From a virus, in IMG/VR virus record IMGVR_UViG_3300023112_000003: a DNA stretch of 42,816 nt; one strand, given 5' to 3'. Below, piece by piece: positions 8,949 through 34,531 of this stretch. The notes beneath the pieces are model-generated. The model was not told the DNA's origin. It ran no database searches and saw only the letters and a list, made by a program, of their open reading frames with translations. How positions within the stretch are numbered: the first letter of the stretch is position 1; the number at the start of each line of letters is the position of its first letter. The translations under genes and the position numbers were made by a program.

Positions 8949-10076
8949 TTAACTTAGTGGGTCGTAAAAAACTACATATCTGTAATCCAAGGTCTCAGAC
9001 CCTGCCTTGGCAGTATTAACATCCAATTCTATTGTTGTAGTGGTAGCCCAGGCATCATATTTAGAAGAGACTCCCAGACCTGCGTACTCTGACCAACTAC
9101 ACATTCGTAACTTCTCAATCTCGGTACCCGAAGTTATATCTGCATAGTTTATCCAAACATAAAACATGGGTAAATAACCAAGGTTGTGTGTAACCACGGT
9201 CTTACTTCCTGCCCCGCTGGATAGAGTTAAAGTTCCAGATCCTGAGGATTGTATTTTTAAAAGTGGATATACGGAGTTAAATATTAGATTGTTATCCCCA
9301 TCAATATAGTCAAATCCCTCCTTTGCTATCTTTATCCCGTAATCTAATGGTGAAGACGGAGATGCGGATACCGAGGATGATTCTGAGGCAGACTCCGAGG
9401 ATGAAGGTGAAACAGACGAAGATTCCGAGGAAGACTCTGATAAGGAAGAGCTTGCCGAAGAAGATTCGCTACTGCTTGGAGAATTAGATGTACTCAGAGA
9501 AGCAGATTCACTAGAACTGGCACTAGAACTGATAGACGAGCTTTCGGAAGAAGCTGAATATGTAACTGTAAGGTATAAGGAATCACCGGGAATATCATCA
9601 TGTGATTGAAATTCTAAAACAGCCCCAGAAGTATCACTACTGTCGTCGTCGATAATGAATCCCATAGAGTTGCCTGATGACCACCCACCCCTATCCACTA
9701 TCTCTTGAACTATTGAGACTAAGCTCGGGGAGGTGAATGTAGGTCCACCAGACCCTGGGTTAGCAACATCCCAATCTGCACTAGCTGTAGTTTTGGTTCT
9801 ACCAGTAGGGTCCGAGGTCATTATACCGGTGTCGTCTTCGTCTATACCCCAGACTTTAGTTCTAAGGGTATTAGATCCGGAGTTATCTTCCGAGGTACCT
9901 GTTATTGTTGCAGTGAGTATGGTTGCAGCATTAGGGATAGTGACACTTTGGAACCTCACCCCTATAGTATAAGACCCGCCCCCATAACCAAAACCTATGA
10001 AACCATGGTCTACTTGCCAGGTTCCACCAAACTTATATCCGTCGTCGTCATTGTGTGATACTTGAAATGTTGCCAT
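8949..10076 (-). CDS. tail-module protein: N-terminal beta domain + poly-Ser linker + YGIKIxKEG module (375 aa)
   Basis: Start reassigned to ATG 10076 (TAATG overlap with the stop of 10076..10414). MATFQVSHNDDDGYKFGG...; Ser-rich aa 174-242; C-terminal DYGIKIAKEGFDY..HNLGYLPMF..YVVFYD. Confidence 0.7.
   Translation of the reverse strand: MATFQVSHNDDDGYKFGGTWQVDHGFIGFGYGGGSYTIGVRFQSVTIPNAATILTATITGTSEDNSGSNTLRTKVWGIDEDDTGIMTSDPTGRTKTTASADWDVANPGSGGPTFTSPSLVSIVQEIVDRGGWSSGNSMGFIIDDDSSDTSGAVLEFQSHDDIPGDSLYLTVTYSASSESSSISSSASSSESASLSTSNSPSSSESSSASSSLSESSSESSSVSPSSSESASESSSVSASPSSPLDYGIKIAKEGFDYIDGDNNLIFNSVYPLLKIQSSGSGTLTLSSGAGSKTVVTHNLGYLPMFYVWINYADITSGTEIEKLRMCSWSEYAGLGVSSKYDAWATTTTIELDVNTAKAGSETLDYRYVVFYDPLS
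9351..9557 (-). repeat. poly-Ser (SSSESxS) coding tract, 69 aa, in 8949..10076
   Basis: SASSESSSISSSASSSESASLSTSNSPSSSESSSASSSLSESSSESSSVSPSSSESASESSSVSASPSS. Confidence 0.9.
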
Positions 10077-10414
10077 TATGGTTGATCCAAATAAATTATA
10101 TAAAAGAGACTGTCGGTTCCTGAGTTCTCGTCGCAATAAAGGTATGTAGCATCTGCCATTACATCCCAGGAGGCGTTGCCGTAGCCTGTGGCTGGATGTG
10201 CTTCTGTTAAACTGTTTTGTAAAATGTAAGCATCCCACATAGGTATAAACCCTAATCCATGCTCTATGTTGGTGTCAGAGGCTATAACTGCCTGTGTGGA
10301 GACCTTTGGGCAAGTGTCAGTGCTGAGGATAGTATAAAACTTTTTGGTTGTCTCGGTAGGGGCGGATTTAACATCAGTACCCTCCTTAGAGATCTTAATA
10401 CCGTAGTTACCCAT
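10076..10414 (-). CDS. tail-module protein, YGIKIxKEG paralogue family member 3 (112 aa)
   Basis: MGNYGIKISKEGTDV..HGLGFIPMW..FYIIYLD. Confidence 0.6.
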   Translation of the reverse strand: MGNYGIKISKEGTDVKSAPTETTKKFYTILSTDTCPKVSTQAVIASDTNIEHGLGFIPMWDAYILQNSLTEAHPATGYGNASWDVMADATYLYCDENSGTDSLFYIIYLDQP

Positions 10415-10824
10415 TAGAACCCCGCTAACTGATAGCCTATTAGAATTCTGTCGTTAGTGCCATCACTAATTAATATACGGTTATTTGTCCCGTCTATTTG
10501 GACATTGGCATCACCAAGACTGAAGTCACCGGTAAAGTCCTGCCCTGTTCCTGTTAACGCAATGTATCCTGATATTGTTCCTGAGGTAGCTACGAAGTTT
10601 CCATCCATATCAACCGAGAAAGGTGCGTCGGCGAAAACGTCGTTTCCTATGTAAAGTCCTTGCTCATCGGCTTTAACTACCTTATCTGCCTCGCCTATAA
10701 ACATGCTGGTAGATTTAATAGATCCTGGGGTAGAGAAGTTCCTAGTCTCGCTTGGGGACCTTCTTGGGGAGGTTGTTATTGTCTTTATTCCTAGGGAGTT
10801 GTAGCCTAAATCTCTATAGCTCAT
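10414..10824 (-). CDS. tail fibre-like protein (136 aa)
   Basis: GLYIGNDVFADAPFSVDMDGNFVATSGTISG resembles the G(L/I)W(I/L)G..F..APF.V...G motif common in phage tail fibre/host-specificity proteins. Confidence 0.5.
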   Translation of the reverse strand: MSYRDLGYNSLGIKTITTSPRRSPSETRNFSTPGSIKSTSMFIGEADKVVKADEQGLYIGNDVFADAPFSVDMDGNFVATSGTISGYIALTGTGQDFTGDFSLGDANVQIDGTNNRILISDGTNDRILIGYQLAGF

Positions 10825-12404
10825 TGTTTGGTTTCCTCGTCTTCTCTAAACTTAGGTTTATAACCAACCTCAATTGTATGTAATTCATACATATTTTCTT
10901 TGCTGACCTCTTCTAGTAAGAATTTAATTCTCTTTCCAGATACCTTTAGTTTAATGAAATCCGAGAAACCGTCTACTTCGCCTATAGACTTCCATCCTTT
11001 GTCGTCTACTTTATATCTGACCTTGAGGCCACTTAAAAGCTCTCCATGTGCCCATAGTTCTCTGAAGTCATCAACTATCTTAGGCCCGCTGCCGTAAATC
11101 CAAGGCGTCTCAATAAAGGAAGAGAATGGTGCCGTGTTCTGGGTTCCTGATGTGAACATCTGGAATACTTCCCCGTCGTCGTTACCTATAAATAATTCTC
11201 TGCTGGAACTTGTTGTGAACATGTGGGCGTTCTTTACGCTGTCAGCTAGTTCAAGTCTGGACCAGTTATTTTGTAAAATGTTGTAGTCTAGGACCACGTT
11301 TGTTAGAGATCTACCATCAATGGAGACGTCCCCTATAAAGATATATAAATGATGTCCTCTTACCTGTGCTTTAATTTCTGATAGATTGGCTGTAGGTATA
11401 GCATCCCAGTAATCCTGTACTGGTAGGGAAATCTTAGTGTCTTGTCCACCATCGAATAGGTACATGCCGTCTGTTGAAGGCCAGAACAACCACTGTCCAT
11501 ATTCTGAGATACCCTCGTGTGAAACACAGCCGTGGTTAGATATCTGATATTTCTCGTCTGCTAATGTGAAAACATAACATCCGGCTTCGCCGCCAACAAA
11601 CATTCTCTCTCCTACCTTACCTGCCCCTGTGATGATGTCGTTAAACGTAATCCAAGCATCTGAAGCCCATGTGATAGGGGATGTTTCAGTTGTGGTTGAT
11701 CTGTAGGCTCTGCTGACGTGGGTTACGCCGTCGTAAACTGTATGTAATAAATAGATTCTGTCACCAAAATGGATGACATATTTAGCCTTTGGTGCTCCTA
11801 CGGTCTCCACAGCACTTGGGCTAGAGGAAACTGATGAGCTTTCAGAGGTTGAACTAGAGGCAGAAGAGCTAATAGAAGAGCTTGGGGAGTTACTTACCGA
11901 AAGGGAAGCACTCTCAGAGCTTGAAACTGAAGCTGAAGATGAAGCTGAAGATGATGTGGATGCTGATTCGGATGAGGATTCCTCACCTGTAGACCACTCT
12001 GTACCATCATAACTTCTTGTTGCGTCTGCGAAGTTAGCTACAAATAGTGTGTCTAAGGCCGGAGAATAGGCAAAGTCTACTTTATTTCCTGCTGTTAAAG
12101 CCTGTGATTGGCTTGTCCAGGTCCCTGTTACGTCCTTGTAGATACCTGCATTAGAAGCACCATCTATAGCAACGTAGTGTTCGTGTGTTCCGTCAGCCCT
12201 GGCAAAGTCTATACCACCTAGTATGTCCTGACCTGACGTTATTTGGGCGTTTTTAATTGCATAATCACCGGATTTCTTTAGGACCCCGATCTTACTGTAT
12301 ATAAAGTTTTGGATTTCAGCTAATTCACCGTCTTCAACGAGAAAGTGTGAGGCGTTTCTATTTATTCCTCCGGCGAGAGGTATTGTTTTATATTTAAATG
12401 CCAT
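10821..12404 (-). CDS. tail nozzle / tubular-B-like beta-propeller protein with internal poly-Ser insertion (527 aa)
   Basis: Repeated beta-blade-like segments (IYLLHTVYDG, MFVGGEAGCYVF, MYLFDGG, LYIFIGD). Ser-rich aa 142-197. Functional call rests on gene order only. Confidence 0.45.
   Translation of the reverse strand: MAFKYKTIPLAGGINRNASHFLVEDGELAEIQNFIYSKIGVLKKSGDYAIKNAQITSGQDILGGIDFARADGTHEHYVAIDGASNAGIYKDVTGTWTSQSQALTAGNKVDFAYSPALDTLFVANFADATRSYDGTEWSTGEESSSESASTSSSASSSASVSSSESASLSVSNSPSSSISSSASSSTSESSSVSSSPSAVETVGAPKAKYVIHFGDRIYLLHTVYDGVTHVSRAYRSTTTETSPITWASDAWITFNDIITGAGKVGERMFVGGEAGCYVFTLADEKYQISNHGCVSHEGISEYGQWLFWPSTDGMYLFDGGQDTKISLPVQDYWDAIPTANLSEIKAQVRGHHLYIFIGDVSIDGRSLTNVVLDYNILQNNWSRLELADSVKNAHMFTTSSSRELFIGNDDGEVFQMFTSGTQNTAPFSSFIETPWIYGSGPKIVDDFRELWAHGELLSGLKVRYKVDDKGWKSIGEVDGFSDFIKLKVSGKRIKFLLEEVSKENMYELHTIEVGYKPKFREDEETKQ
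11814..11981 (-). repeat. poly-Ser coding tract, 56 aa, inserted in 10821..12404
   Basis: ESSSESASTSSSASSSASVSSSESASLSVSNSPSSSISSSASSSTSESSSVSSSPS. Confidence 0.9.
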
Positions 12405-12407
12405 CTT

Positions 12408-13532
12408 TTACCAGTCATACATATCCTCACCAAAGATCACTTGAACTTTAGGAGAGGTTATTTTCTGTCTACCCTGTGCTAGGAATTCCATTAACTCCTC
12501 CATTGAGTCTTTGAATAGGCTTTTGAAGGTTGAGGCTGTGTCTTCGTCCTTAGTCAACCAAGCCTTATATAGAGCGTAATTTACCAATATATCCCTGGAA
12601 CCATAAGGTAATCCATGTTCTGAGGCCTCGGTGGACATTGATGTAGGTGCTTTCCAGTACCAAATAAATGCCATTCCAGAGCCACTAGGTGTTGGTCTAA
12701 TAACATAATTAGCTCCCCTAATAGCGATTTGTGGGTTTGTAGGAGAAAAGACCGTGTTTGACTCCCCCTCGAACTCACTTGTAAATTCAGCCTTGTAGGC
12801 GTTAGTTGCCACTGTGCCTGTAGGGTTTACGTCAACTCGGACGAAACCTAAGAAGTTAGTTGGTAATGTGTAAGTGGCTGTCCCGTTAGTCAAAGAGTCT
12901 GTTGTGTAGGCCTTTAAGAACTCTGGGAAGTATGTAAATATCTGATTTGTTACTTTTCTAACCCCGCCTTTAAGGTATTTGGCTACCTGTTCTCTGGTTA
13001 ACTCTTTACCTTCTGTGTCTCCGAAGTCTTCTAATACCTCGTCTGTCATAGACTTTAAGGAGTCATCTTCATATCCCGTGCCTTGAACAGCTACAGAAAG
13101 GGAAGAAAGGCTTGTTGTAGTAGCGTTGTAGTATCTAATCTTATACCAGGTAGATGAAGTACCTGCCGTGTCGTCGTATGATGTTATTGGCTGATCTAAT
13201 GTCAAATCTACTGTTGCCAAGAGGCTGTAAGAGCCACTCTCAGAAGAGGCACTGTAAATCTTAACCTGATTATATTTTATTTGGTAAATAGGAGTTCTGG
13301 CTGAATGTGCAAAGATAGGACCAGTTGTATGACCTATTGTTGTATTACCTGTAGTGCTTGTAAGCTTGATAATCTCTGTCAACTCTTCAGCAGGAACACC
13401 AAACACTGTGTAGTCGTTTGTTGCAAAACTTTTGTTATTTTCCACTGTCGAGGACGTGGCGGATGCCGCTACGTCTGTAGATAGTCTTGTATCTTGCGGT
13501 CCAAGTTTAGGATGTTCTATTTCGATTATCAT
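12408..13532 (-). CDS. head-tail adaptor / tail tubular-A-like structural protein (374 aa)
   Basis: Position between fibre and nozzle-like genes. N-terminal FN3/Ig-like segment (WYKIRYYN). Function inferred from order only. Confidence 0.4.
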   Translation of the reverse strand: MIIEIEHPKLGPQDTRLSTDVAASATSSTVENNKSFATNDYTVFGVPAEELTEIIKLTSTTGNTTIGHTTGPIFAHSARTPIYQIKYNQVKIYSASSESGSYSLLATVDLTLDQPITSYDDTAGTSSTWYKIRYYNATTTSLSSLSVAVQGTGYEDDSLKSMTDEVLEDFGDTEGKELTREQVAKYLKGGVRKVTNQIFTYFPEFLKAYTTDSLTNGTATYTLPTNFLGFVRVDVNPTGTVATNAYKAEFTSEFEGESNTVFSPTNPQIAIRGANYVIRPTPSGSGMAFIWYWKAPTSMSTEASEHGLPYGSRDILVNYALYKAWLTKDEDTASTFKSLFKDSMEELMEFLAQGRQKITSPKVQVIFGEDMYDW

Positions 13533-13544
13533 AGGTTAATTATA
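13530..13544 (-). promoter_or_regulatory. TATAAT-N6-ATG leaderless-type promoter/start (adaptor-like gene), extended -10 TGT
   Basis: Minus strand reads TGTTATAATTAACCTATG. Confidence 0.5.
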
Positions 13545-13548
13545 ACAT

Positions 13549-16500
13549 TTAGTCGTTATTAATAGTGAGTCTAATGCTTTCAGTACGGACTCTAAAAACG
13601 GGAATATCTTCAGCAACATCCCTGATACCGTGCTCTAAAATAGGAGCTGATGGGCTTGAGGACTCACTTGAAGAAACAGATGAGGATATTGAAGACGAGG
13701 CCGATGATGACACTGAAGAACTCTCTGATGAAGAGATAGATGGGCTCTCGGAAGATGATTCCGAAGATGATTCGGAACTAGACTCTGATGAAGAAGCCGA
13801 GCTACTTACTGATGATGACGGGCTTGAAGACTCCGATTCTGATTCTGACGAAGATGCAGAGCTGCTTTCTGACGAAGAGGCAGAAGATGATTCCGAGCTG
13901 GACTCGGAAGACGATACAGAACTGCTAACGGAAGCACTCTCAGATTGAGAAGAGCTCTCGCTTGAACTCACGGAAGAACTTACAGATGAAGATTCTGATG
14001 TTGAAGACGACTCCGAACTACTCTCGCTGGATGAAGCACTAGAGGATATAGAGCTACTCATAGAAGCACTCTCAGATTGAGATGCTGATTCCGAGCTAGA
14101 CACCGATGAGGATACACTAGAACTCTCAGACAAAGAGGCTGACTCGCTTGAGGAGGCGGAGCTAGATATTGAAGACGATGCTGAGGAGGACACAGAGGAA
14201 CTCTCAGACATAGATGCAGATTCTGAGCTACTTATAGATGACGATAAAGATGAGCTTGGTGACCCTGATGCCGACTCTGAGGATGAGACAGAGGAAGACT
14301 CCGAAGACGATTCTGACAATGAAGCGGACTCAGAACTGGATTCAGAAGAGCTTACAGAAGAACTAACAGAAGCACTTTCCGAACTTGATTCAGATAATGA
14401 CGCAGATTCTGAGGAAGATTCAGAACTACTGACTGAAGATGATTCTGAAGATATGTCTGAATAGACATAAAATATAGCGTCGAAAGCACCACTATAATCA
14501 TTCCAAGAACTACTTTCAAGGGATGCGTAGTTTCCTGGGTGACTCCCTATACTGCCGTTAGAAAGGCCTGCCTGTAAGTAGTCGGTAGCGTGACCAGGAA
14601 ATTCAACAGTTACTACATATTTTGTGTCATTTGTTAGCGTTATCTTGTTAGCCCCGGTGAAGTTGAATGATATTAAACCAAACGATGTAGTTATTGTAGA
14701 GATATCCACATTCTCGGACGTAGCCAATGCCGCCCCAGTAGGTACAGAGGAGCTTCCGTAAACCCCACTATGGGCATATATCTTGGAGACCATGTTACCT
14801 GTTGGGGAATTAACTTTTCTTAAATAAAACTTTGATAGTTTAAGTATCTCCCCGTTACCGTTAAATGATTGGGAGGTTGCATCTGTCACAGCATCGTGTG
14901 TGTTGTATGTGGTTTGGTTAGCTTCCGGGTGACTAGATACTATACTTGGTGGGATTTCCCCTTCTGAAGGTGATGGTGATTCACTAGATGACTCAGAACT
15001 ACTTATAGAACTGGAGGCAGATGATGACTCAGAGCTAGAAATGGATGAAGAAACACTGGAAGATTCGCTTGACGATTCTGATAATGATGCTGATTCGCTG
15101 GATGACTCGGAAGAGCTTGCTGAAGACGATATAGAACTGCTGGCTGACGAGGACGCAGATGAACTTTCCGAAAGTCCCTCCGCCGTCCAGAATGTACTTG
15201 GTGAGTTTTGGTTGTTGTAAACTGTAGTTACCCAATCATCTGTCCTAGACCCGTTAATAACTCTAGCCTCATCTAAAAGACCGGACATATAGTCAGCAGC
15301 GTTATCTCCAGCTCTTCCTAACGAAAAGTTTGAACTGGATGCAGTTGGAGAACCACTTGCTGTACCTTCAGTCTTAGTTGTGTTTACAAATATCTTTAAT
15401 TTAGTATTGGATGAATCATAGATACCAGTAATCAATCTCTGAGTACCCGTACCTGTATAGGCTGAGGCGGAGTATATCTCACTTGTAGTAGTAAGACCGT
15501 CCATTCTAAAAGAGAACTTATCAGCGTTACCGCCTCCTTGGTCTACCTTAGCCCTGAATAAGAACCTTGCAGAACCTCCCCCGCTGTCTCTTAATCCCAT
15601 CAGCTTCATGTTAACTGCATTATCGTCTCTTGCTACCCAAGCCTGAAATACCTGAGAACCAGATATATCAGTGTTTGCTGCTGCATTAGTTAGGTACTCT
15701 GTGGAAGCGTCATCAAAATCCCAACCATCTCCTATTTTAGCTGCAGCGTAATCTGGTGCTGTGCCTGGAGCCATGTGATATTCATTAGAAGTACTATCGT
15801 TACCACTGTTACCGTGCCAAACTCCTTGATAACCATTGCTCCATACAGCCTCACTACCATAAGAAGCTAAATCTCTAGCTTGCGGTGTAGCTGTAGCGTT
15901 GTCCCCCCATAGATAAATAGTATCGTCTGCATCGTATTGTAAAGTTGGAATCTTAACGTGTACCTCTGCGAGACTATTCTCTGTATCCCATGTAACTATT
16001 TCATGTGCAAGTTGTGTTGTTCCCGCTTCGTCTGAGGAGAATCTAACGTCTGCTCCTCCGTTGTACATAGCAGTTATTTCTGCGTCTGATAAAGCTCTGT
16101 CCCAAATGGCTACATCATCCAAAGTGCCATCCAGCGGGAAAAAGCCGTCATACTGTCTAGCTAGGTTGAAAGTACCGTTAACATCTGTTGCACTTCCAGT
16201 CGCAGATTCTTCGTATTTTACCCCGTTAACAAATATCCCAAGTTTACCCGCCGCTGAGTCATATCTACCAACAATGTGATACCAATTATTGATTTGGAGG
16301 GCAGTCGGGTGGATTACGCTTGTGTCCGTCAGACCAGGCATATCAAAACGTGGTTTGTATGTGGTGGCACTTATAATTAACCTTTTGTTTCCAGTTGCAG
16401 ATGACTTACTCATTAAATGATGCCAGTTAGCCAAAACATCTGGGTTAACCCAGCAACTCCATGTCTGTGAACCCGATATTTCTAAGTTCGCACAAGAAGC

Positions 16501-16848
16501 GTCTGCGACGGTTAGATAGTCACCTGCGGTGTCATCCGTTCTAACAAAGTCTGCACCATTACCAAACTTTGCTGCTGGGTATGAAGGGCCATCTGCCGTT
16601 GTCAAAGTATATCCATTACCAGAACTATCGGTTCCATCCGCTTCCAACCTCCAATAACCCTGTAAATTAGCGTCATTTAATAAATAGTTTGTGTTTATTT
16701 CCTGTCCCTGGGTATTGGTAAAAGTTCCAGCGGTAATTTCCGATTCAGTTATAAGTAATGGGATGTTGGTATGATCGGAAGAACCAGACACTTTCGTATT
16801 GTCTGTTGTTAGTTTTTCTAATGCTGTCCATCCAGTAGGGAATGCCAT
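13549..16848 (-). CDS. giant lectin-like fibre: LamG + DUF2341-like + LamG + poly-Ser + beta domain + 269-aa poly-Ser tail (1099 aa)
   Basis: Two Laminin_G_3 signatures: LDDVAIWDRALSDAEI at about aa 240-258 and LLDEARVINGSRTDDW at about aa 523-540. DUF2341-like DVRFSSDEAGTTQLAHEIVTWDTENSLAEVHVKIP..IYLWGDN. Ser-rich aa 559-628 and 799-1067. Confidence 0.8.
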   Translation of the reverse strand: MAFPTGWTALEKLTTDNTKVSGSSDHTNIPLLITESEITAGTFTNTQGQEINTNYLLNDANLQGYWRLEADGTDSSGNGYTLTTADGPSYPAAKFGNGADFVRTDDTAGDYLTVADASCANLEISGSQTWSCWVNPDVLANWHHLMSKSSATGNKRLIISATTYKPRFDMPGLTDTSVIHPTALQINNWYHIVGRYDSAAGKLGIFVNGVKYEESATGSATDVNGTFNLARQYDGFFPLDGTLDDVAIWDRALSDAEITAMYNGGADVRFSSDEAGTTQLAHEIVTWDTENSLAEVHVKIPTLQYDADDTIYLWGDNATATPQARDLASYGSEAVWSNGYQGVWHGNSGNDSTSNEYHMAPGTAPDYAAAKIGDGWDFDDASTEYLTNAAANTDISGSQVFQAWVARDDNAVNMKLMGLRDSGGGSARFLFRAKVDQGGGNADKFSFRMDGLTTTSEIYSASAYTGTGTQRLITGIYDSSNTKLKIFVNTTKTEGTASGSPTASSSNFSLGRAGDNAADYMSGLLDEARVINGSRTDDWVTTVYNNQNSPSTFWTAEGLSESSSASSSASSSISSSASSSESSSESASLSESSSESSSVSSSISSSESSSASSSISSSESSSESPSPSEGEIPPSIVSSHPEANQTTYNTHDAVTDATSQSFNGNGEILKLSKFYLRKVNSPTGNMVSKIYAHSGVYGSSSVPTGAALATSENVDISTITTSFGLISFNFTGANKITLTNDTKYVVTVEFPGHATDYLQAGLSNGSIGSHPGNYASLESSSWNDYSGAFDAIFYVYSDISSESSSVSSSESSSESASLSESSSESASVSSSVSSSESSSESASLSESSSESSSVSSSESASGSPSSSLSSSISSSESASMSESSSVSSSASSSISSSASSSESASLSESSSVSSSVSSSESASQSESASMSSSISSSASSSESSSESSSTSESSSVSSSVSSSESSSQSESASVSSSVSSSESSSESSSASSSESSSASSSESESESSSPSSSVSSSASSSESSSESSSESSSESPSISSSESSSVSSSASSSISSSVSSSESSSPSAPILEHGIRDVAEDIPVFRVRTESIRLTINND
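13648..14454 (-). repeat. poly-Ser coding tract, 269 aa, C-terminal region of the 1099-aa fibre
   Basis: Residues 799-1067 are almost entirely S with periodic E/A/V/L/I/P (SSSESASLSESSSESxSVSSS...). Confidence 0.95.
14965..15174 (-). repeat. poly-Ser coding tract, 70 aa, internal linker of the 1099-aa fibre
   Basis: Residues 559-628: LSESSSASSSASSSISSSASSSESSSESASLSESSSESSSVSSSISSSESSSASSSISSSESSSESPSPS. Confidence 0.95.
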
Positions 16849-16860
16849 GTGTTAATTATA
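16846..16860 (-). promoter_or_regulatory. TATAAT-N6-ATG leaderless-type promoter/start (1099-aa fibre)
   Basis: Minus strand reads AGGTATAATTAACACATG. Confidence 0.5.
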
Positions 16861-16865
16861 CCTTT

Positions 16866-17837
16866 TTATAGCGTGGGAGTAGAGTCCTTGACCTGTTGTA
16901 GCTCCTCTTCTGTCCAGCCTGGAACAGGCCAGAATTTCTCTAGAAGCCATGACAGGGGCAAAATCTGTCCCTCAAAAGTGCTGTTGTAAAATACTTCTTT
17001 CGCTTTCTTCTTGGCCCTTCTTACTTGACTTCCGGGTAACTTGTATGGAAACCCAAAATCCCCTCCTTGAGTTCTAAACATATGTCCATAATAGGTGTCG
17101 TGGTTTATTACCACTCTCCCACCAGAAAGCCATGTTTTTACTGCCACTTCGATGCCTTGAGATCCCCAACTACCAAATGTTTCGCTATCGCAGATCTTCA
17201 ATTCCCAATATTTGTCTCTAGTCATCATAAAACAAGACCCTTGTAAGGACATGGAGTCTGTTAAACCCTCTCTTTCTAGGGCCTCTAGATACTCATGTCT
17301 CTTATAGTATTCTCTAAAGTATTGAAAGTGTGGTTCTGAATCGAATCTATAAGCCCTGCTCTGTGGGTTGGTCTTAGCCACCCACATCATTTTTCTTCTT
17401 ATCTTATCCGTCTTGCCACAATCAGGGCATTTATCTGGGGTTCTACCTTGGTAGGTCTTCCATCCGCAGTGATAACATTTCCAATCAAAAGCCCAAAGGT
17501 TTCTCATTATAGGGGCCATAGTGTAGTTATCCTTCATCTTAGCCATCATTTTTACATCAAAACCTTTGTCAAATGCACAATGAGCGTCAACCTTCATCAC
17601 ATACTTAGCCTCAGACAGCTTACAAGCCTCATTTGTGGCCTCTCTCTGTCCTACAGACACTGGGTGGTATATGATGGTCACTCTGTCGTCCTGAACGACT
17701 GGGGGGTCACTCCAGGCCCCGTCGAGCACTGCTATAATTTCGGTGTTACCTTCAATGTTCTCTAAGGCATTCTCTATAGTTTTTGCCAAAAATATTTCAT
17801 TCCTAGATGGGATTAAGATGGATAGGTCGTATTTCAT
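16866..17837 (-). CDS. GT2-family glycosyltransferase (GT-A fold, DxH type) with Zn-ribbon insertion
   Basis: LSILIPSRNE, VLDG, KVDAHCAF, GSQGIEVAVKTWLSGGRVV. CYHC..CPDC insertion at aa 121-141. Paralogue of 20466..21356. Confidence 0.8.
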   Translation of the reverse strand: MKYDLSILIPSRNEIFLAKTIENALENIEGNTEIIAVLDGAWSDPPVVQDDRVTIIYHPVSVGQREATNEACKLSEAKYVMKVDAHCAFDKGFDVKMMAKMKDNYTMAPIMRNLWAFDWKCYHCGWKTYQGRTPDKCPDCGKTDKIRRKMMWVAKTNPQSRAYRFDSEPHFQYFREYYKRHEYLEALEREGLTDSMSLQGSCFMMTRDKYWELKICDSETFGSWGSQGIEVAVKTWLSGGRVVINHDTYYGHMFRTQGGDFGFPYKLPGSQVRRAKKKAKEVFYNSTFEGQILPLSWLLEKFWPVPGWTEEELQQVKDSTPTL

Positions 17838-19060
17838 ATATCCTCCAAGATACTTAGATCAACAGTATTGCTTGCAACCAAGGTTTCACTGAGACACCCC
17901 TTGTACCTGTAAATATATTTGAAGTGTTCTGGAATTCTCCTATAGCCATAGAATCTGTCTAATTCCTCCTCGGCATCATGCATTATAATGAAATCGGCGT
18001 TATCCTTTAACCTAATAGCATCTATATGTCTTCTCTTAGCTGGTTTGTGGTCTATTAAGACAACTCCCCAATGAGTATCGTCGATATCTGCTAGATTCCA
18101 ATTGTCTATTTTTTCCACTTTGTGGTAATCGCTATGATATTGTCTATTTATTTCATAGTATTTAGGATCATTCTCATAAGATAGGATTTGTCTTTTCTCT
18201 TTAGCACACATCATGTCTATTAAAGGGGTGCTGTATTGTCCCATACCCATCTCTAAAACGGGCCCCTCGGATAGACTCAGGGCTCTAGATAGAACAGGCA
18301 TATGGGTCCCCCCTAGATCATTGTCTTTAAAGTTAGGTGAATTAGGTGGTCGCCACAGATCCATAACATCGTTTACAGACCCCCATGGGTTTAGCCAATC
18401 TCCTCTAAGATTTCCTAGTTGTTTGTTGGGACCTGGTCTTCCTCCTGTTATATATCCTAGAGCGTGTTCGTGTGAGAAAACTACATTAGGATAAGCAGAG
18501 TAGTGTTCTTCTGTCTTTACTGGGGTCACACCAAGGTGTTTATCGTACCTACCTGGCTCACCGCAATATTTGTTATCGTATTCGGGATATTTGGCAAACC
18601 TTTCTTCCATAGCCTTAATGAATAGTTCTCTATTACATACCATTGAGTTAATAATCTTTCGTCTCCTCCAAGAGAAAACTAAAGGATCCGACCATGTAAA
18701 AAAGGAATATTTGTTCATCTCATAGGAGATAGTGTCACTCTTTGGCCTATGGTGGAAGTAGTCAGGTGAGTACAAAACGTCGTCTTCTGCCATTGCAATA
18801 TACTCAGTCTTGGCTGCCTTGGCTCCAATTAGTATTTGCATAAACACATTCTTAAAAGATCTTCCTATATCCCCAACGCAGATGTTCTCTCCGAAATCCA
18901 TGGGTTGGTGAGAGACAGAGATCAAAGGGGTATCTAGTATAGACTCCTTTAAGATTCTTCTAGTGTTCTCTACAAAGTAGGGATTGGTCTTGTCTAGGTG
19001 ATTAGCCGTATAATAGATGACAGTGAGGTCACTATGAGTCTTCGGTTTGGCATGCTTCAC
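17834..19060 (-). CDS. two-domain protein: GT-A-like N-domain + Rossmann/class I methyltransferase-like C-domain (408 aa)
   Basis: LTVIYYTAN..IAMAEDDVLY (acidic DxD-type motif). C-terminal GPVLEMGMGQYST..VVLIDHKPAKRR resembles SAM-MTase motifs I and post-II. GTG start overlapping the HNH stop (GTGA). Confidence 0.55.
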   Translation of the reverse strand: MKHAKPKTHSDLTVIYYTANHLDKTNPYFVENTRRILKESILDTPLISVSHQPMDFGENICVGDIGRSFKNVFMQILIGAKAAKTEYIAMAEDDVLYSPDYFHHRPKSDTISYEMNKYSFFTWSDPLVFSWRRRKIINSMVCNRELFIKAMEERFAKYPEYDNKYCGEPGRYDKHLGVTPVKTEEHYSAYPNVVFSHEHALGYITGGRPGPNKQLGNLRGDWLNPWGSVNDVMDLWRPPNSPNFKDNDLGGTHMPVLSRALSLSEGPVLEMGMGQYSTPLIDMMCAKEKRQILSYENDPKYYEINRQYHSDYHKVEKIDNWNLADIDDTHWGVVLIDHKPAKRRHIDAIRLKDNADFIIMHDAEEELDRFYGYRRIPEHFKYIYRYKGCLSETLVASNTVDLSILEDI

Positions 19061-19428
19061 AGTATTTTATCCTTCCCGTTGCCAAACTCACGCTTCTCTA
19101 TCCTTTTTATTGTATTACAGTTTGCACATAATAGCTGATAACTATTTTCTCTATTCTCCATGACTTTTTTGTAAAAACCAATTACTTGTTTATTTCTATC
19201 TTTCCTACCACCACCATTAACATGGTCTATTTGCAAAGCTCTAATGTCGTCGAAACCACAATGCACACAAGCACCACCCAAATGGTCTAATACTTTTTTA
19301 CGCCATTCTTTCCTGTAGACCTTATGTTTTGTTAACACCTTTAGTTTATTGTTATCGTAATATATCTTCTGTCTGGGATATTTTATCCCAGTTAAGTCGT
19401 CGTGTGTTTTAGGTTTAGCGTGTTTCAT
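19057..19428 (-). CDS. HNH endonuclease (free-standing, inside the glycosylation island)
   Basis: CVHCGF..LQIDHVNGGG..N..LLCANCNTIK; 123 aa. First 13 residues duplicate the N-terminus of the downstream GT gene. Confidence 0.85.
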   Translation of the reverse strand: MKHAKPKTHDDLTGIKYPRQKIYYDNNKLKVLTKHKVYRKEWRKKVLDHLGGACVHCGFDDIRALQIDHVNGGGRKDRNKQVIGFYKKVMENRENSYQLLCANCNTIKRIEKREFGNGKDKIL

Positions 19429-19949
19429 TTTTTATACCACCAACAGGGGTAGCCTTTCTTTTCTTTTAATAAATTCAATTCTACATCTAGTATATCTATC
19501 CATTCATCTACTGCGGACTTTACCCCGTACCTATCACCATCATCGTGGTAGTCGTGTCCCGCCACTATCCCTCCTTCTCTTACCTTATGGTGCCACTCTC
19601 TAATATCCTCAACTGTATGTTCATAGTCGTGGTTAGCGTCTATATAAACAAAGTCTAAGGAGCCGTCCTCAAACTCTTTAACCGCATCCATAGAATAGGC
19701 CTTAATCATGAAGCAATTGTCAAAAGGTTCTAGTCTGTCCTTAGCGTACTCATAAAACTTCTTTGGTGAGTTCTGATTAGCATAGGACTCCCAAGGATCA
19801 ATAGAATATAGAGTTAGGTTTGGGACCTTCTGTAGTAAACACTTAGAGAACCTGCCTAGTTCCACACCTATTTCTGCACCTATAGTGTATCCGTTCTCTT
19901 CAAATAGCTTGGGAAAGTAGTCCCATCTCCTACCTTTTACTATATTCAT
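19425..19949 (-). CDS. class I SAM-dependent methyltransferase (Methyltransf_24/TylF-like, candidate sugar O-methyltransferase)
   Basis: GAEIGVELGRFS..LYSIDPW..LDFVYIDANHDYEHT..GGIVAGHDY. Confidence 0.7.
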   Translation of the reverse strand: MNIVKGRRWDYFPKLFEENGYTIGAEIGVELGRFSKCLLQKVPNLTLYSIDPWESYANQNSPKKFYEYAKDRLEPFDNCFMIKAYSMDAVKEFEDGSLDFVYIDANHDYEHTVEDIREWHHKVREGGIVAGHDYHDDGDRYGVKSAVDEWIDILDVELNLLKEKKGYPCWWYKK

Positions 19950-20476
19950 ATCTTTTTAAACTTGGCGTATTCCCTTCTGTCATGCGGATAAACCGTTATT
20001 GGCCCTTCCAACTTAAATCCGTAGCTCTCTATTAATGCAGTTAGTTCTGTAGGTGTCCACTCCTGAACATGGCGTTTTTCTAAACGTGCTCTCTTGATTG
20101 GGTTAACGACATACAGATAGTCTTCTAAGACCCTGTAAGCCTCTCTAAGAGCTTTTTCAGGTTCTTCTAGGTGTTCTAGCGTGTCACCAAATAACGCAGC
20201 AGAGAACGTACCATCATCCCAGGGGAGCTCATAAGCACTGCCTAATATTACGTTTGCTTCGTGTTCGTTGGCAAGTTTTACACCAGTAGGTTCATTATCT
20301 ATACCAGTAAACCCCATTAAACCAGTAATAAGACCGTCTCCGGCCCCTATATCAAGTACGTTCTTTTCCTTTATCCAATCTTTGATTATCTGGACGTGTT
20401 TATATGTTTTGGTTGTGGGGTCTTCGTATTCTCTCCAATGGTAGTCACCTTTTTTGTCATATTTATCAAACCTCAT
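19946..20476 (-). CDS. class I SAM-dependent methyltransferase (Methyltransf_11-like)
   Basis: VLDIGAGDGLITG motif I; AALFGDTLEHLEEPEKALREAYRVL. Start taken at MRFDKY (20476); an alternative ATG is at 20515. Confidence 0.75.
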   Translation of the reverse strand: MRFDKYDKKGDYHWREYEDPTTKTYKHVQIIKDWIKEKNVLDIGAGDGLITGLMGFTGIDNEPTGVKLANEHEANVILGSAYELPWDDGTFSAALFGDTLEHLEEPEKALREAYRVLEDYLYVVNPIKRARLEKRHVQEWTPTELTALIESYGFKLEGPITVYPHDRREYAKFKKI

Positions 20477-21356
20477 ATTTCTGGTATTCCTCGGGCCAAC
20501 CAGGAACAGGGCCATATGTATCGGTGAATTTAGCTATTAACCATTCGATTGGGTATATTTGTTTGTGAAACATTGTTCCCATCTCCATCCATCCTAAGAA
20601 AGGATCTGGGTTGGGGTGGAATGTTCCTTTAGGTACAGGGTATCCTCTACCATACTTCTTACCTTTATGTAGGTGTGCGTACCAAGTAGCTTTGTTTCTA
20701 ACTACCCTACCCCCTGATAACCAGCAGTTTAATCCTATTTCCAGAAACTCATTCCAGAAAGGCCCATACTGTTCTTCATTACAAAGCTCTAGTTCATAGA
20801 AATAATCCTTATGCATAAACCAACAGGAACCTTGTGCTGACATTAAATCAACGATATGTTCCTCTGGTAATGGATCTTTATTATTCAATTCTTTCCAGAG
20901 ATCTCCGTGGAGTCCTCTTTTTCTACCATCTGCTAATTCCAAGTATGGGTATGTTAGATACATGTAGTCAATATCTGGTCTGCCGTCTTCGGTGAATACC
21001 CAAGCCTCTGGGTCTAGTCTCTTTCTTTTAGGTACAACTACCCAGTTCTTCTCGCAGTCTGCAACGAGCTTAACATCATAGCCCTCATCTAGCATACAAT
21101 GGGCGTCAATTTTCATGATGTATTTACCTTTGGCTATAGCAACAGCTGAAGCAATCCCATTTCTCATGCCGTGGGATTTTCCTCTGTGGATAATATGTAA
21201 TCTGTCGTCTTCTGGGAGTTCGTTGGGTTCGGTCCAATAACCATCTAATATAACAATAATCTCAATCTCTCCTCTGGCTTTCTCCAGTAAATCTTTTACC
21301 GTCTTGCCTAGGAAACGCTCATTTCTCGATGGTATTACTACTGATACAACGGGCAT
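20466..21356 (-). CDS. GT2-family glycosyltransferase (GT-A fold, DxH type)
   Basis: VSVVIPSRNE, ILDG, KIDAHCML, NEFLEIGLNCWLSGGRVV. Start taken at ATG 21356 (MPVVSVV), 6 nt downstream of TATAAT; the track ORF begins at GTG 21371. Confidence 0.8.
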   Translation of the reverse strand: MPVVSVVIPSRNERFLGKTVKDLLEKARGEIEIIVILDGYWTEPNELPEDDRLHIIHRGKSHGMRNGIASAVAIAKGKYIMKIDAHCMLDEGYDVKLVADCEKNWVVVPKRKRLDPEAWVFTEDGRPDIDYMYLTYPYLELADGRKRGLHGDLWKELNNKDPLPEEHIVDLMSAQGSCWFMHKDYFYELELCNEEQYGPFWNEFLEIGLNCWLSGGRVVRNKATWYAHLHKGKKYGRGYPVPKGTFHPNPDPFLGWMEMGTMFHKQIYPIEWLIAKFTDTYGPVPGWPEEYQKYEV

Positions 21357-21368
21357 AAATTTATTATA
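21354..21368 (-). promoter_or_regulatory. TATAAT-N6-ATG leaderless-type promoter/start (GT2 gene)
   Basis: Minus strand reads GTGTATAATAAATTTATG. Confidence 0.45.
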
Positions 21369-21391
21369 CACGAATTGTAGGGAGGTGCAAA

Positions 21392-21754
21392 CTATGCTTC
21401 TATGTAGAGATAGACTGTAAACTCAACGTCAGCGTTATTCTGCTCGGCAGATGCCGTGACTGTTACTGTTACTGGTCCAACACATGGGATTCTAAGAGGT
21501 GTTTCCTCTGTAGCTCCAAATGCTTGGCTAATATCAAGAGTTGTTGAACTCTCGGCTAGGGAACCAACTTCATATATAGTGACGTTGTTTACGTCAGTTA
21601 TTTTAACTGTGTAAGTATCTGAACCATCCAAAGCCCCTGCTGTGGAAGCAACACCTACTATAAATCCTGCTGGGATCTCTTGTGTAGCAGATGCAATAGC
21701 TGTACTTTCGTCAACTATGGTTAATGGAATCGCAATACTTTGTACTTTTGCCAT
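21392..21754 (-). CDS. hypothetical beta-rich protein (120 aa), possible minor structural protein
   Basis: ORF with TATAAT-N6-ATG start, located inside the late operon. Confidence 0.5.
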   Translation of the reverse strand: MAKVQSIAIPLTIVDESTAIASATQEIPAGFIVGVASTAGALDGSDTYTVKITDVNNVTIYEVGSLAESSTTLDISQAFGATEETPLRIPCVGPVTVTVTASAEQNNADVEFTVYLYIEA

Positions 21755-21766
21755 ATGTATATTATA
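21752..21766 (-). promoter_or_regulatory. TATAAT-N6-ATG leaderless-type promoter/start (120-aa gene), extended -10 TGA
   Basis: Minus strand reads TGATATAATATACATATG. Confidence 0.5.
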
Positions 21767-21784
21767 TCAGGTAAGGGGGAAAGG

Positions 21785-22000
21785 TTACACAATGGTTTTC
21801 TTATTCATCATCCTGGCGACCATCTTTGAGATCTCCATTATGTCATCATCACCAACGTCCTCTTTTTTCCTGTCGATCTGGGAGTTGTAATAATCAAGGA
21901 AAGTCATCATATCTTGGACACTATTGAAGTCCTCTAAATCAATCTTTCCTTTAGCTTCCATCTTTCCTTTTAGTTCTTTGAACTTGTGAGGTTTAGGCAT
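21785..22000 (-). CDS. hypothetical protein (71 aa)
   Basis: ORF overlapping the stop of the upstream GT gene by 8 nt. Confidence 0.45.
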   Translation of the reverse strand: MPKPHKFKELKGKMEAKGKIDLEDFNSVQDMMTFLDYYNSQIDRKKEDVGDDDIMEISKMVARMMNKKTIV

Positions 22001-22670
22001 CTGGGAAGCTCGTCTTTCCAGTCTGGGCTGCGTAAGCCACTAGGTTAGCGATCCAGAGCAAATCTACCATCTTATAATGAGATCCAACATGGTTGAAATC
22101 CACAAAGACGGGAATATCTAATTTTTTACATTTAATACAGAAGGACATATCGTCGTTTGTTATCATAGTACCGTCTTCTTTAAACATATCGTTGAATGGG
22201 CCCCCAAACTCTTCTACCACCCTCTCTATTACATCTCTTTTAATACACATTAATCCTGTACCCACAGCATCTACTTGTTTTACCCCGTCTCTAAACTCAA
22301 GTGGGTACTGCTTAAATCCTACTTCTTCTGGGAAGTTTTCTCCAAACTGATAGACATGGAAATGCACACCCCTCTCACTCCTGCCTGGGTAAACTCCTGC
22401 TATAACTGGTTTATCTTCGTCTAATAGGTCAAATGGGTTTATGTGCGGGGGGTTGTCGTCATCAACCATAAATAGATAGTCCCAATCTCCTTCTAAGAAG
22501 TCTTTAACTATCTGATTTCTGTTATTAGCAATTGGTCTTGCGGAGGGGAAGAATATGCGAAATTCGTAGTCTTTGGCCTTTTCCTGCATCCAGGCAAATA
22601 GGCTAGTTTCAAATCCGGTAATTGTTGTGCCTTGATTTAACACGTTTACCATTACTTTCTTTCTTGTCAT
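21993..22670 (-). CDS. GT-A fold glycosyltransferase (DxD type)
   Basis: 225 aa; YLFMVDDDNPP acidic metal motif, then GTGLMCIKRDV and DDMSFC segments typical of small GT2-like enzymes. Confidence 0.6.
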   Translation of the reverse strand: MTRKKVMVNVLNQGTTITGFETSLFAWMQEKAKDYEFRIFFPSARPIANNRNQIVKDFLEGDWDYLFMVDDDNPPHINPFDLLDEDKPVIAGVYPGRSERGVHFHVYQFGENFPEEVGFKQYPLEFRDGVKQVDAVGTGLMCIKRDVIERVVEEFGGPFNDMFKEDGTMITNDDMSFCIKCKKLDIPVFVDFNHVGSHYKMVDLLWIANLVAYAAQTGKTSFPDA

Positions 22671-22682
22671 GACTGAAGTATA
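22668..22682 (-). promoter_or_regulatory. TATACT-N6-ATG leaderless-type promoter/start (GT-A gene)
   Basis: Minus strand reads TATACTTCAGTCATG, just after a hairpin. Confidence 0.4.
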
Positions 22683-22687
22683 TCACC

Positions 22688-22715
22688 AAAGCCCCGTATG
22701 TTTCAACGAGGCTTT
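22688..22715 (-). terminator. hairpin between the decoration-like gene and the GT-A gene (weak terminator/attenuator candidate)
   Basis: Minus strand reads AAAGCCTCG-N10-CGGGGCTTT: 9-bp stem with one G-U pair. Confidence 0.3.
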
Positions 22716-22726
22716 TGCATTCAGCG

Positions 22727-23545
22727 TTATGCGGATGGTGATGGGCTCTCTGAGCTTGATTCTGAAGAGCTTGTACTTAATGACGAGCTGGCAGAACTTG
22801 AGGCTGAGGAGCTGATTGAGCTAGAAGCAGAACTGGATACAGAACTACTAATAGATGCGGAAGCAGATTCTGAGCTACTTTCTGAACTAGATTCTGAGGC
22901 TGACTCGGAGGCCGACTCGGAACTAGAAGCGGAGGAGCTGACAGAACTACTTACAGAAGCTGATGCTGATTCAGAACTACTCTCGGAAGAGCTGACTGAT
23001 GCAGATGAGCTTGCTGAGCTACTCTCTGAGCTGCTCACGGAAGCTGAAGAGCTTGCGGAACTGCTTATTGAAGAGCTCGCTGAAGAGCTGATAGATGAGC
23101 TTGCTGAATTGCTCAAAATATCTTGCCCTGTAATAGATCTAAATTCTAGTTCTACAACCATGTTTCTAAGGTCCGTAGTGGTTCCTGAGAAATCAAGGCC
23201 TACTCTATCACCCTCTTTAAACTTGGTGACGAAAGGAACTAGGTGTTTAGCTTTAGCTATGTCTACTGTATCAACTGTAACTACTGTACTTGCGGTGGAT
23301 TCTAGATCGAAAGAAGAGGACAGAAGGTCATTACCTTCGGTTGATGTCTCTGTGTTTCTTAACTTCTCTACCATAAGGGTAGCGGTTGCTCCTGCTGCGA
23401 CTGTGTGAACCTCCTTAATGGAGACCAATTCGCAATCTTCAGGGACTATTCCGATAACTACATCTGAGAAGCCATGGGACAATTGGTACCTAATAACAAA
23501 GCTATTTCTATGTGTTTCAACTATATTTCTTAATTTTATTGCCAT
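22727..23545 (-). CDS. head decoration/cement-like protein with 128-aa C-terminal poly-Ser tail (272 aa)
   Basis: The first ~140 aa are paralogous to 23583..23981: VVIGIVPEDCELVSIKEVH vs KVIGIMPVRAQLVAVKEVH; EGDRVGLDFSGTTTDL vs AGDRVGVNMTGTTTSL. Residues 145-272 are SSSxSxS repeats. Confidence 0.6.
   Translation of the reverse strand: MAIKLRNIVETHRNSFVIRYQLSHGFSDVVIGIVPEDCELVSIKEVHTVAAGATATLMVEKLRNTETSTEGNDLLSSSFDLESTASTVVTVDTVDIAKAKHLVPFVTKFKEGDRVGLDFSGTTTDLRNMVVELEFRSITGQDILSNSASSSISSSASSSISSSASSSASVSSSESSSASSSASVSSSESSSESASASVSSSVSSSASSSESASESASESSSESSSESASASISSSVSSSASSSISSSASSSASSSLSTSSSESSSESPSPSA
22730..23113 (-). repeat. poly-Ser coding tract, 128 aa, C-terminal tail of the decoration-like protein
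   Basis: Residues 145-272: SNSASSSISSSASSSISSSASSSASVSSSESSSASSSASVSSSESSSESASASVSSS...SESPSPSA. Confidence 0.95.
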
Positions 23546-33793: not shown

Positions 33794-33953
33794 TGAGCTC
33801 CTTTAACATATCTCCTTTAAGTTGTTCTAATAAAAAGTCTAAATTGCCCTCATTATCTGGGTAAGGCCATACTTCTACCCAACCGAAAACCGAGTCTTTG
33901 CTTATACCTAGAAGCTTTTTAGCTAAATAATATTTTATATTTTTAATTCCCAT
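33780..33953 (-). CDS. small HTH DNA-binding protein (57 aa), leaderless first gene of the minus-strand arm
   Basis: Own translation MGIKNIKYYLAKKLLGISKDSVFGWVEVWPYPDNEGNLDFLLEQLKGDMLKELNARS. LAKKLLGISKDSVFGW resembles an excisionase/MerR-type HTH. Confidence 0.45.
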   Translation of the reverse strand: MGIKNIKYYLAKKLLGISKDSVFGWVEVWPYPDNEGNLDFLLEQLKGDMLKELNARS

Positions 33954-34490: not shown

Positions 34491-34531
34491 AGGTATACAA
34501 GTAGTAAGTTATAGAGAGGTGGTGATTACTA

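Follow-up and report, generated by a model that had tools for sequence, protein, structure and literature searches.

The window analysed here is the whole 42,816-nucleotide (nt) stretch of IMG/VR virus record IMGVR_UViG_3300023112_000003, in which serine-rich tracts in several virion proteins lie around an island of glycosyltransferase (GT) and methyltransferase genes. The late genes, which include a P22/SU10-type portal, a major capsid protein, and an SU10-type adaptor, identified this uncultured phage as a podovirus (short-tailed). All genes from 1740 to ca. 33800 were encoded on the minus strand, forming a long late operon of about 1.7-33.8 kb, and the coordinates given below refer to this strand unless marked otherwise. 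Five in-frame Ser-rich tracts (59-69% Ser) were found in four genes of the operon, and the GT island (16866-22670) sat inside it on the same strand, between g22727 and the fibre gene, with tracts on both sides. An earlier note on this DNA had placed long Ser tracts in the same four proteins and on both flanks of the island, and these placements were verified; its title spoke of six tracts, whereas its own list held five and our six-frame scan of the window gave no sixth.

One tract belonged to g22727 (22727..23545), which lies two genes after that of the major capsid protein (24106-25311) and whose product of 272 amino acids (aa) consisted of a 140-aa N-domain and a 135-aa C-terminal tract (22733-23137, 65% Ser) with nothing beyond it. 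Sequence comparison showed the N-domain to be paralogous to the tract-free, 132-aa product of g23583 (23583..23981; 40% identity, E 2e-24), and this pair of genes was confined to relatives carrying the GT island. Homologues of g22727 in relatives L002, L044, and L045 likewise ended in Ser tracts, with differing spacer residues. No Pfam, PHROG, or NCBIfam match to the family was obtained except compositional ones, and a homologue search with the N-domain found none. The description of g22727 as decoration-like is therefore a positional one, and its place near the capsid gene suggests a role in the virion.

The 1099-aa fibre protein encoded by g13549 (13549..16848), directly upstream of the adaptor gene, carried two tracts. 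Two Laminin_G_3 domains and a DUF2341 domain were followed by tract 1 (14932-15204, core 14965-15174; 59% Ser), a 160-aa domain, tract 2 (13648-14460, 271 aa; 69% Ser), and a 32-aa C-terminal peptide. The fibre of relative L063 begins at the 160-aa domain, the laminin-type module and tract 1 being an N-terminal addition absent there, which placed tract 1 at a domain-fusion junction. The tail-module protein g8949 (8949..10073; 374 aa from the ATG at 10073) was built from an N-domain, a tract (9351-9581, 61% Ser), and a C-domain with paralogues in two small neighbouring genes, g8504 and g10076. Since the matching C-domain stands as a separate open reading frame (ORF) in L010, this tract was also read as an inter-domain linker; in the fibre and in g8949, the tracts thus have a second role as long, flexible connections from one domain to the next. 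At the fibre position of a tract-free relative (L012, 8936-9982), we observed a 348-aa protein with 16% Ser whose N-terminal 60 residues repeat short motifs (SVSENVSL, SVSDNITVSE) without forming a Ser tract; it may represent an alternative solution for that position.

The fifth tract lay mid-protein in the tail nozzle g10821 (10821..12404), as a segment of 55-60 aa (11814-11993, 63% Ser). An AlphaFold2 model built from a 44-sequence alignment showed a confident beta-propeller (predicted local distance difference test, pLDDT, 86.2), and the tract, residues 143-197, was the sole segment below a pLDDT of 50, forming a loop that exits and re-enters the propeller. Foldseek returned podophage nozzle and hub proteins, with Pa223 as the best match (E 1.5e-23, template-modelling score, TM, 0.74) and VP1, P22 gp10, Sf6, SU10, GP4, and T7 gp12 as further matches. 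Both this fold and the gene immediately upstream, the tract-free SU10-type head-to-tail adaptor (12408-13532, PF24175, E 5e-17) that served as our synteny anchor, identified g10821 as the nozzle. Among approximately 97 nozzle homologues, nearly all were 463-476 aa long and about 93 of the 97 had no insertion of any kind. Ser tracts were present in four, in three different loops and in separate lineages; because the insertions occupy three different loops, tract display on the nozzle was acquired more than once.

The tracts shared one peptide grammar, in which spacer residues, mainly Glu, Ala, Val, and Ile, recur mostly with a period of four (SSSx). Together they amount to ca. 590 residues per set of proteins, including up to ca. 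400 serines. Thr was very scarce, leaving the putative acceptors nearly pure Ser, and the four tract proteins contained no LPXTG motif. The peptide ESASLS(V/T)SNSPSSS does occur in two genes with different codons, as had been noted, although it is 14 residues long and not a 16-mer. Spacer composition was common to all tracts of one genome (cosine 0.95 within genomes versus 0.77 between them; 0 of 2000 permutations reached the observed contrast), and such genome-specific spacers fit an acceptor matched to its cognate enzyme set. The Glu-rich, Pro-poor grammar of the window was atypical among the loci sampled: most relatives use Pro, Val, or Ile as spacers, without Glu, and several show alternating S-hydrophobic-S patterns or SPSx repeats, with an SxSx dipeptide grammar in L022 and L045. 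Two acidic, Leu-rich plus-strand ORFs (13565-13948 and 22698-23408) were rejected as genes, being antisense readings of the Ser tracts. Gene callers also put small opposite-strand ORFs around the equivalent tracts in L062 and L063.

In their DNA, the tracts used all six Ser codons in roughly background proportions, and the example codon string quoted in the earlier note was located at 13684-13719. Tandem Repeats Finder and a repeat finder detected just a degenerate 12-nt periodicity of 60-75% identity. As a null for the repetitiveness due to the peptide alone, synonymous codons were shuffled among positions of the same amino acid (500 shuffles). Repeated 12-mers numbered 54 against 47.9 +/- 12.3 in the shuffles, and the longest exact repeat was 20 nt against 17.3 +/- 2.0, so a tandem-repeat origin of the tracts in DNA was rejected. 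Adjacent Ser-Ser pairs sharing one codon made up 11.1%, versus 19.8 +/- 2.7% after shuffling, and none of the 500 shuffles fell that low. Identical neighbouring Ser codons are therefore avoided, and, since they are rarer than under the shuffle null, triplet runs are actively avoided. Other phage grammars in L002 and L022 were close to their shuffle null, while that of L013 was somewhat more repetitive.

Comparison with close relatives also indicated selection on the peptide. Between the nozzle tract and that of L062 (ca. 90% DNA identity), all 36 serines were kept, 21 of them with a changed codon, while 4 of 20 spacer residues had changed. Together with the shuffle test, this bore out the earlier proposals that the tracts are codon-interleaved and not DNA repeats, and that the peptide itself is under selection. 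The fibre tract evolves faster than its flanks, with 82% identity and gaps between close relatives versus 89.9% ungapped in the flanks, and its length varies between them. In the near-identical contig L032, tract length was unchanged, which is weak evidence, as this contig possibly comes from the same population.

The island enzymes provided the second line of evidence. Two of them, g16866 (16866..17837, 323 aa), immediately upstream of the fibre gene, and g20466 (20466..21371, 301 aa), belonged to PF00535 and were 34% identical to each other (E 1.5e-56). When g16866 was compared by phmmer with the whole PDB, the top seven matches were polypeptide N-acetylgalactosaminyltransferases (ppGalNAc-Ts; 1xhb 2.6e-5), the GT27 enzymes that initiate mucin-type O-glycans, and g20466 likewise matched ppGalNAc-Ts first, with T2 and T1 as the best; the searches with the two enzymes also gave E-values of 3.5e-5 for T10 and 4.6e-4 for T2. 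A profile of the 29-member family matched ppGalNAc-T1 at 3e-11, and its top 13 matches were all GT27. The next match after these was GalT1 (5hea, "Putative glycosyltransferase"), which we take to be part of the streptococcal serine-rich-repeat (Fap1) glycosylation pathway. The AlphaFold2 model of g16866 had a GT-A fold (pLDDT 86.9), and its top 50 Foldseek matches in the PDB were all ppGalNAc-Ts (E ca. 2e-15, TM 0.6-0.66). The likeness to mucins and serine-rich-repeat adhesins that had been put forward earlier thus goes beyond analogy, as both GT2-type enzymes of the island are closest to GT27 in the PDB.

The alignments of g16866 and g20466 to ppGalNAc-Ts spanned the DxH motif (DAHC) and the WG..E..W..GG....GH.FR block; DAHC aligned with DAHC/DSHC of T1/T2, and YGHMFR with GHVFR. 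D84, H86, and H252 were invariant across the 29 family members, including g20466, so that the DxH motif and the downstream His that bind Mn2+ in GT27 enzymes are conserved; in mouse GALNT1 these ligands are Asp209, His211, and His344 (PMC4202792). True GT27 enzymes also have a C-terminal ricin-type lectin domain (PMC4202792); because this domain is absent, g16866 and g20466 were filed as GT27-like and not as GT27 members. A separate feature of g16866 was a CxxC...CxxC insertion at residues ca. 121-140, whose cysteines C121, C124, C137, and C140 were nearly invariant in the family and which gave weak rubredoxin and zinc-ribbon matches. To our knowledge, ppGalNAc-Ts have no four-Cys insertion of this kind.

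Other island genes would complete a glycan pathway. Two methyltransferases were present, a class I S-adenosylmethionine methyltransferase (19946..20515, Methyltransf_11) and a Methyltransf_24 enzyme (19425..19949) that recurs in nearly all related sugar islands examined. The probable GT-A glycosyltransferase g21993 (21993..22670, 225 aa) carried the motif MVDDDNPP and gave weak Glyco_tranf_2_3 matches, and its family profile matched the viral GT-A enzyme A197 of Sulfolobus turreted icosahedral virus (STIV; 2c0n) best in the PDB, although weakly (E 1.1e-3). This gene was kept in all relatives, including the tract-free, island-free L001, L012, L040, and L042, and its target is probably another one, perhaps the capsid. 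The two-domain protein g17834 (17834..19060, 408 aa) was homologous to a gene of the Levybacteria island described below (E 2e-13), where its C-domain resembles a separate gene. The N-domain of g17834 is a putative glycosyltransferase on the strength of an invariant ExD motif; its family occurred in two to three copies in L002, L044, and L013, and its profile matched nothing in the PDB or Pfam. Phmmer searches of the PDB with g21993 and g17834 themselves gave nothing useful. Outside the island, a nicotinamide adenine dinucleotide-dependent sugar-nucleotide dehydratase/epimerase of the Polysacc_synt_2 type (40717..41469, plus strand; PF02719, E 2.6e-50) probably supplies a modified sugar donor; its link to the tracts is putative. 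In L060, a gene of similar type is the first of the GT island. A small Cys-rich ORF, g19057 (19057-19428), appeared HNH-like by eye and had no Pfam match. Its first 17 residues (MKHAKPKTH.DLT...) nearly match the start of g17834 (76% identity, the DNA having diverged), so that g19057 looks like an insertion into the sugar island that duplicated its neighbour's start.

The association of enzyme and tract was examined within the phage group, in IMG/VR, and beyond this phage type. In the window, the g16866 coding sequence including its stop ends at 16866, 18 bases before the fibre start codon at 16848, and fibre tract 1 starts 1.7 kb further on. This arrangement proved to be the typical one. Homologous proteins numbered ca. 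5,500, and relatives of g16866 were encoded on 460 IMG/VR contigs, from which 80 loci were sampled. Of these, 41 were informative because 5 kb or more of sequence followed the enzyme; a tract was counted when it lay on the same strand and measured at least 40 aa. A downstream tract was found in 37 of the 41, the first beginning a median of 1.2 kb past the enzyme stop codon (interquartile range 0.7-1.7 kb), versus none in 16 enzyme-free loci (184 kb). Seven of seven contexts of close g16866 homologues (65-71% identity) also paired the enzyme with a tract protein, among them a different phage type with Collar, Amidase_2, and RusA genes (L065, L066) and contigs of Levybacteria and Curtissbacteria genome bins.

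Within the phage group (capsid proteins 63-76% identical), six contigs (the window, 3300025322_000062, L044, L045, L013, and L022) had island and tracts together, and four (L001/L011, L012/L043, L040, and L042), compared over the capsid-to-tail span, had neither. The outcome that the earlier note had named as refuting, common occurrence of the tracts in related phages devoid of glycosyltransferase genes, was not seen: tract-free relatives had no island and tract-bearing ones with enough sequence had one. The window capsid was 73-76% identical to those of tract-free relatives versus 66-70% to those of other tract-bearing ones, which indicated that the tract trait does not simply follow the capsid gene.

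Taken together, these findings suggested that the tracts are probably exposed, unstructured O-glycosylation acceptors on virion proteins, modified by the phage's own island. Modification would take place in the host cytoplasm. There g16866 and/or g20466 would put the first sugar on the Ser hydroxyls of the tracts, as ppGalNAc-Ts initiate mucin-type O-glycans; g21993 and possibly the g17834 N-domain would extend the glycan; the two methyltransferases would cap or modify the sugars; and the dehydratase at 40717-41469 would provide a modified donor. Such a glycan brush would occupy up to ca. 400 serines, spread over the capsid-proximal protein, the fibres, the nozzle, and the tail protein. The transfer reaction, the division of labour between the enzymes, and the purpose of the brush are proposed here from the kinds of genes present; the brush might provide shielding or solubility, or it might adhere to or imitate a surface glycoprotein of the host.

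Several points weigh against this glycan-acceptor reading. Its support consists of homology and gene neighbourhood, the 37 of 41 count comes from loci that are not phylogenetically independent, and enzyme and tract genes could travel together as a mobile module with no enzyme-substrate relation. Four of the 41 informative loci had no downstream tract (two of these four had one upstream), and L026 and L005 carry tracts with no glycosyltransferase seen in their 17 kb. The identity of g16866 and g20466 to true GT27 enzymes was 14-19%, Pfam scans of both showed just the PF00535 catalytic domain and no ricin-type lectin domain, and their acceptor could in principle be a lipid or polysaccharide, the conserved adjacency to Ser-tract genes being what speaks for a polypeptide. 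Low AlphaFold confidence is expected for any low-complexity segment and says little, and a plain linker role suffices for the fibre and g8949 tracts.

That last point leads to the alternative that survived best, although we consider it unlikely: the tracts would be unmodified polyserine linkers or entropic bristles, and the island would act elsewhere, on the host envelope or phage DNA. The fibre and g8949 tracts do stand at domain junctions, with matching domains separate or absent in relatives, and L026 shows that tracts can occur with no glycosyltransferase nearby. Secreted modular enzymes offer well-known examples of polyserine linkers (PMC2386152), and the published view of sugar and ConA-like genes in Patescibacteriota phages is one of host-surface modification (PMC12911398). 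However, no domains are joined by the tract of g22727, which ends the protein, or by that of the nozzle, which forms a loop, and tract lengths reach 271 aa here and more than 1000 aa elsewhere. Linkers would also leave the enzyme-tract adjacency (37/41 versus 0/16) unexplained, the enzymes resemble polypeptide-modifying glycosyltransferases and not polysaccharide synthases, and the island genes share both strand and operon with the late structural genes. Glycosylation of the tracts was favoured over plain linkers because of the terminal and loop tracts, the affinity of the enzymes to polypeptide glycosyltransferases, and the adjacency, and it is the most economical explanation; the earlier idea of mucin-like acceptor candidates has thereby gained computational support from the GT27-like fold and motifs as well as from the 37 of 41 loci.

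A structural role is still less probable. Tracts forming polyproline-II-like (SPSx) or beta-like (SxSx) segments could set fibre length or reach, their chemistry being incidental, and this would suit the S-hydrophobic-S or SPSx patterns of several relatives, which could be regular, the occurrence of the longest tracts in fibre-position genes, and the differences in tract length between close relatives. The nozzle tract, however, was predicted without structure, the SSSx grammar of the window with its Glu spacers has no amphipathic periodicity, and the setting of length explains neither the capsid-proximal and nozzle-loop tracts nor the link to a GT27-like gene. It is very improbable that the tracts accept another Ser modification, such as S-x-E phosphorylation or a lipid- or teichoic-type phosphodiester, for although the window tracts are rich in S-x-E and the island of L066 has CTP_transf_like and APS-kinase-like genes, Pfam-type scans found no kinase among the window ORFs scanned, the spacers of most relatives contain no Glu, and the conserved neighbour is a glycosyltransferase.

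Further genes of the window were also assigned. The portal (P22/SU10-type, 27754-29655) and an M23 peptidase (1740-2618) were assigned by family matches, and the major capsid protein by phrog_14242 (2e-75), with an identity of at most 30% to anything in 50,697 deposited phage genomes. The gene at 29908-31398 was assigned as terminase by position alone, a Pfam scan giving no match. The coding strand switches at ca. 33800-34900, where the GC skew turns sharply from negative to positive. In the plus-strand early region of this ca. 43-kb segment, a full-length Cpn60/GroEL-type chaperonin gene was observed (38740-40335, PF00118, E 2.6e-48). A scan of the whole window for host clues found no tRNA genes. 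The host is likely a member of Patescibacteria (the candidate phyla radiation, CPR, of ultra-small bacteria), because the closest homologues of g16866 bear the names Levybacteria, Curtissbacteria, WWE3, and "Patescibacteria group".

Gene exchange and possible insertions were also observed among the relatives. In L026 (1-16157), the same adaptor-nozzle module and a fibre matching the first 555 aa of the window fibre at 71% identity were joined to a different head module, whose portal and adaptor were of the SU10 type and which also encoded a Phage_capsid_4 capsid protein and a gp80-like fibre; this indicated that tail and fibre modules are swapped between head types. In L002 (5302-6605), a g20466 homologue was interrupted by an ORF whose repeated basic motifs recall those of homing endonucleases, and a terminase homologue was found in two pieces ca. 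0.7 kb apart in L042 (3364-5628) and L045 (4579-6819). Introns, inteins, or endonuclease insertions are possible causes of these splits.

The cassettes in bacterial genome bins extended the pairing of enzyme and tract beyond this phage type. In the Levybacteria bin (L055/L056, 12205-16824; L057, ca. 12000-16000), the tract protein follows a GT27-like gene and sugar island, and is itself followed by TatA, TatC, and prenyltransferase (PF01255) genes. It consists of a 215-aa N-domain, a Ser tract of ca. 900-1,200 aa made of SPSV, SPSQ, and SPSA units, and a 70-aa C-domain, with total lengths of 1257 versus 1539 aa in near-identical contigs. Unlike the phage tracts, the SPSV tract was repetitive in its DNA (longest repeat 78 nt versus 24.6 expected), and one assembly had nothing but short ORF calls in this region. 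The island includes GHMP-kinase, SIS, HAD-hydrolase, and NTP-transferase genes, which we read as a putative heptose-nucleotide pathway, and one copy of the contig carried a ribosomal protein L33 gene. The protein may be a host surface protein or a prophage remnant; its N-domain had no detectable similarity to the tract protein of phage L007. The N-domain of the Curtissbacteria-bin tract protein was similar to that L007 protein (E 9e-25), and this contig may therefore itself be viral.

A broader proposal can be made tentatively, at a confidence slightly short of even. A lectin-less GT27-like glycosyltransferase and the polyserine or SPSx tract protein that follows it could constitute a two-gene core widespread among Patescibacteria phages. 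In prokaryotes and viruses, this core would correspond to the mucin-type O-glycosylation of eukaryotes and might even be related to it by descent. Under this proposal, the genome-specific spacer grammar would co-evolve with the enzymes, and the glycoprotein brush on the capsid, fibres, and nozzle of the phages would be of the kind that covers the host. Literature searches gave no relevant account of serine-rich tracts combined with glycosylation in Patescibacteria or in phages. If the tracts are glycosylated, the system would represent a second, independent form of phage virion glycosylation, widespread in metagenomes, whose low-complexity acceptor modules are dedicated to this role and can be added to proteins as different as a capsid-proximal protein, a fibre, and a nozzle. 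Such a system would also place a mucin-type-like initiating enzyme in bacteria and phages, which bears on the origin of GT27, and the "auxiliary metabolic" sugar and ConA-like genes of Patescibacteria phages would be virion-building and not host-manipulating (cf. PMC12911398). In practice, the pair could be leveraged as a compact enzyme-plus-tag system for glycoengineering, and a GT27-like gene followed by a Ser tract within ca. 1-2 kb could serve as a genomic marker for candidate glycosylated virions.

Known systems share some of these properties. Chloroviruses and STIV (A197) encode their own cytoplasmic GT-A enzymes, sometimes with a methyltransferase, and glycosylate virion proteins with them, and the g21993 family has A197 as its best, weak PDB match; their targets are specific sites on a folded major capsid protein and not low-complexity acceptor tracts. 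The polyserine linkers of carbohydrate-active enzymes in Saccharophagus and Cellvibrio (25 and 58 aa in one protein; PMC2386152) are Ser-rich spacers between folded domains, as in the fibre and g8949, but they are short, belong to secreted enzymes, and have no dedicated glycosyltransferase partner mentioned in that source. In the window, tracts also occur at a protein terminus or in a loop, reach 271 aa, and accompany a GT27-like gene. Closer in kind are the serine-rich-repeat adhesins of Gram-positive bacteria, such as GspB, Fap1, and SraP, which have dedicated glycosyltransferases. Very long Ser-rich repeats beside their own glycosyltransferases were found in the window as well, and the SxSx grammar of L022 and L045 resembles that of the adhesins. 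The window differs in its lack of LPXTG, in placing the tracts on virion components, and in its SSSx period of four, and Pfam scans of the island genes found no GT-B-type initiator of the GtfA/GtfB kind, just GT2-type transferases and methyltransferases.

Among phages, the nearest comparison is with mycobacteriophages, whose glycosyltransferases glycosylate capsid and tail-tube proteins (Freeman 2023, as cited in PMC12619734 and PMC11256854); the glycosylated phages named are Che8, Corndog, and Myrna (Freeman et al. 2023, as cited in PMC12619734, PMC11256854, and PMC13313380). As far as these secondary accounts go, the mycobacteriophage enzymes are phage-encoded, often accompanied by methyltransferases, and act on C-terminal parts of structural proteins, much as is proposed for the window. 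The mycobacteriophage acceptors, however, are the C-termini of major capsid and tail-tube proteins, whereas the candidate acceptors of the window are polyserine tracts of 60-270 aa located on accessory, fibre, and nozzle proteins. The hosts are Actinobacteria, as opposed to the probable Patescibacteria here. In the window, the glycosyltransferases lie in the structural operon beside the tract-bearing virion genes, whose products they may modify. Homology of the Che8 type was not seen, as g16866 had no tblastn match in 50,697 cultured-phage records and the window capsid protein is tract-free. Eukaryotic mucin-type O-glycosylation differs in setting, the phage enzymes having no ricin lectin domain, membrane anchor, or Golgi, 14-19% identity, a four-Cys insertion, nearly pure Ser acceptors, and a cytoplasmic phage or bacterial environment. 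Nevertheless, it shares with them the GT-A fold, the metal site of DxH plus His, and the Gal/GalNAc-T block, together with a long, disordered putative acceptor rich in hydroxy amino acids, to which the SPSx relatives also add Pro.

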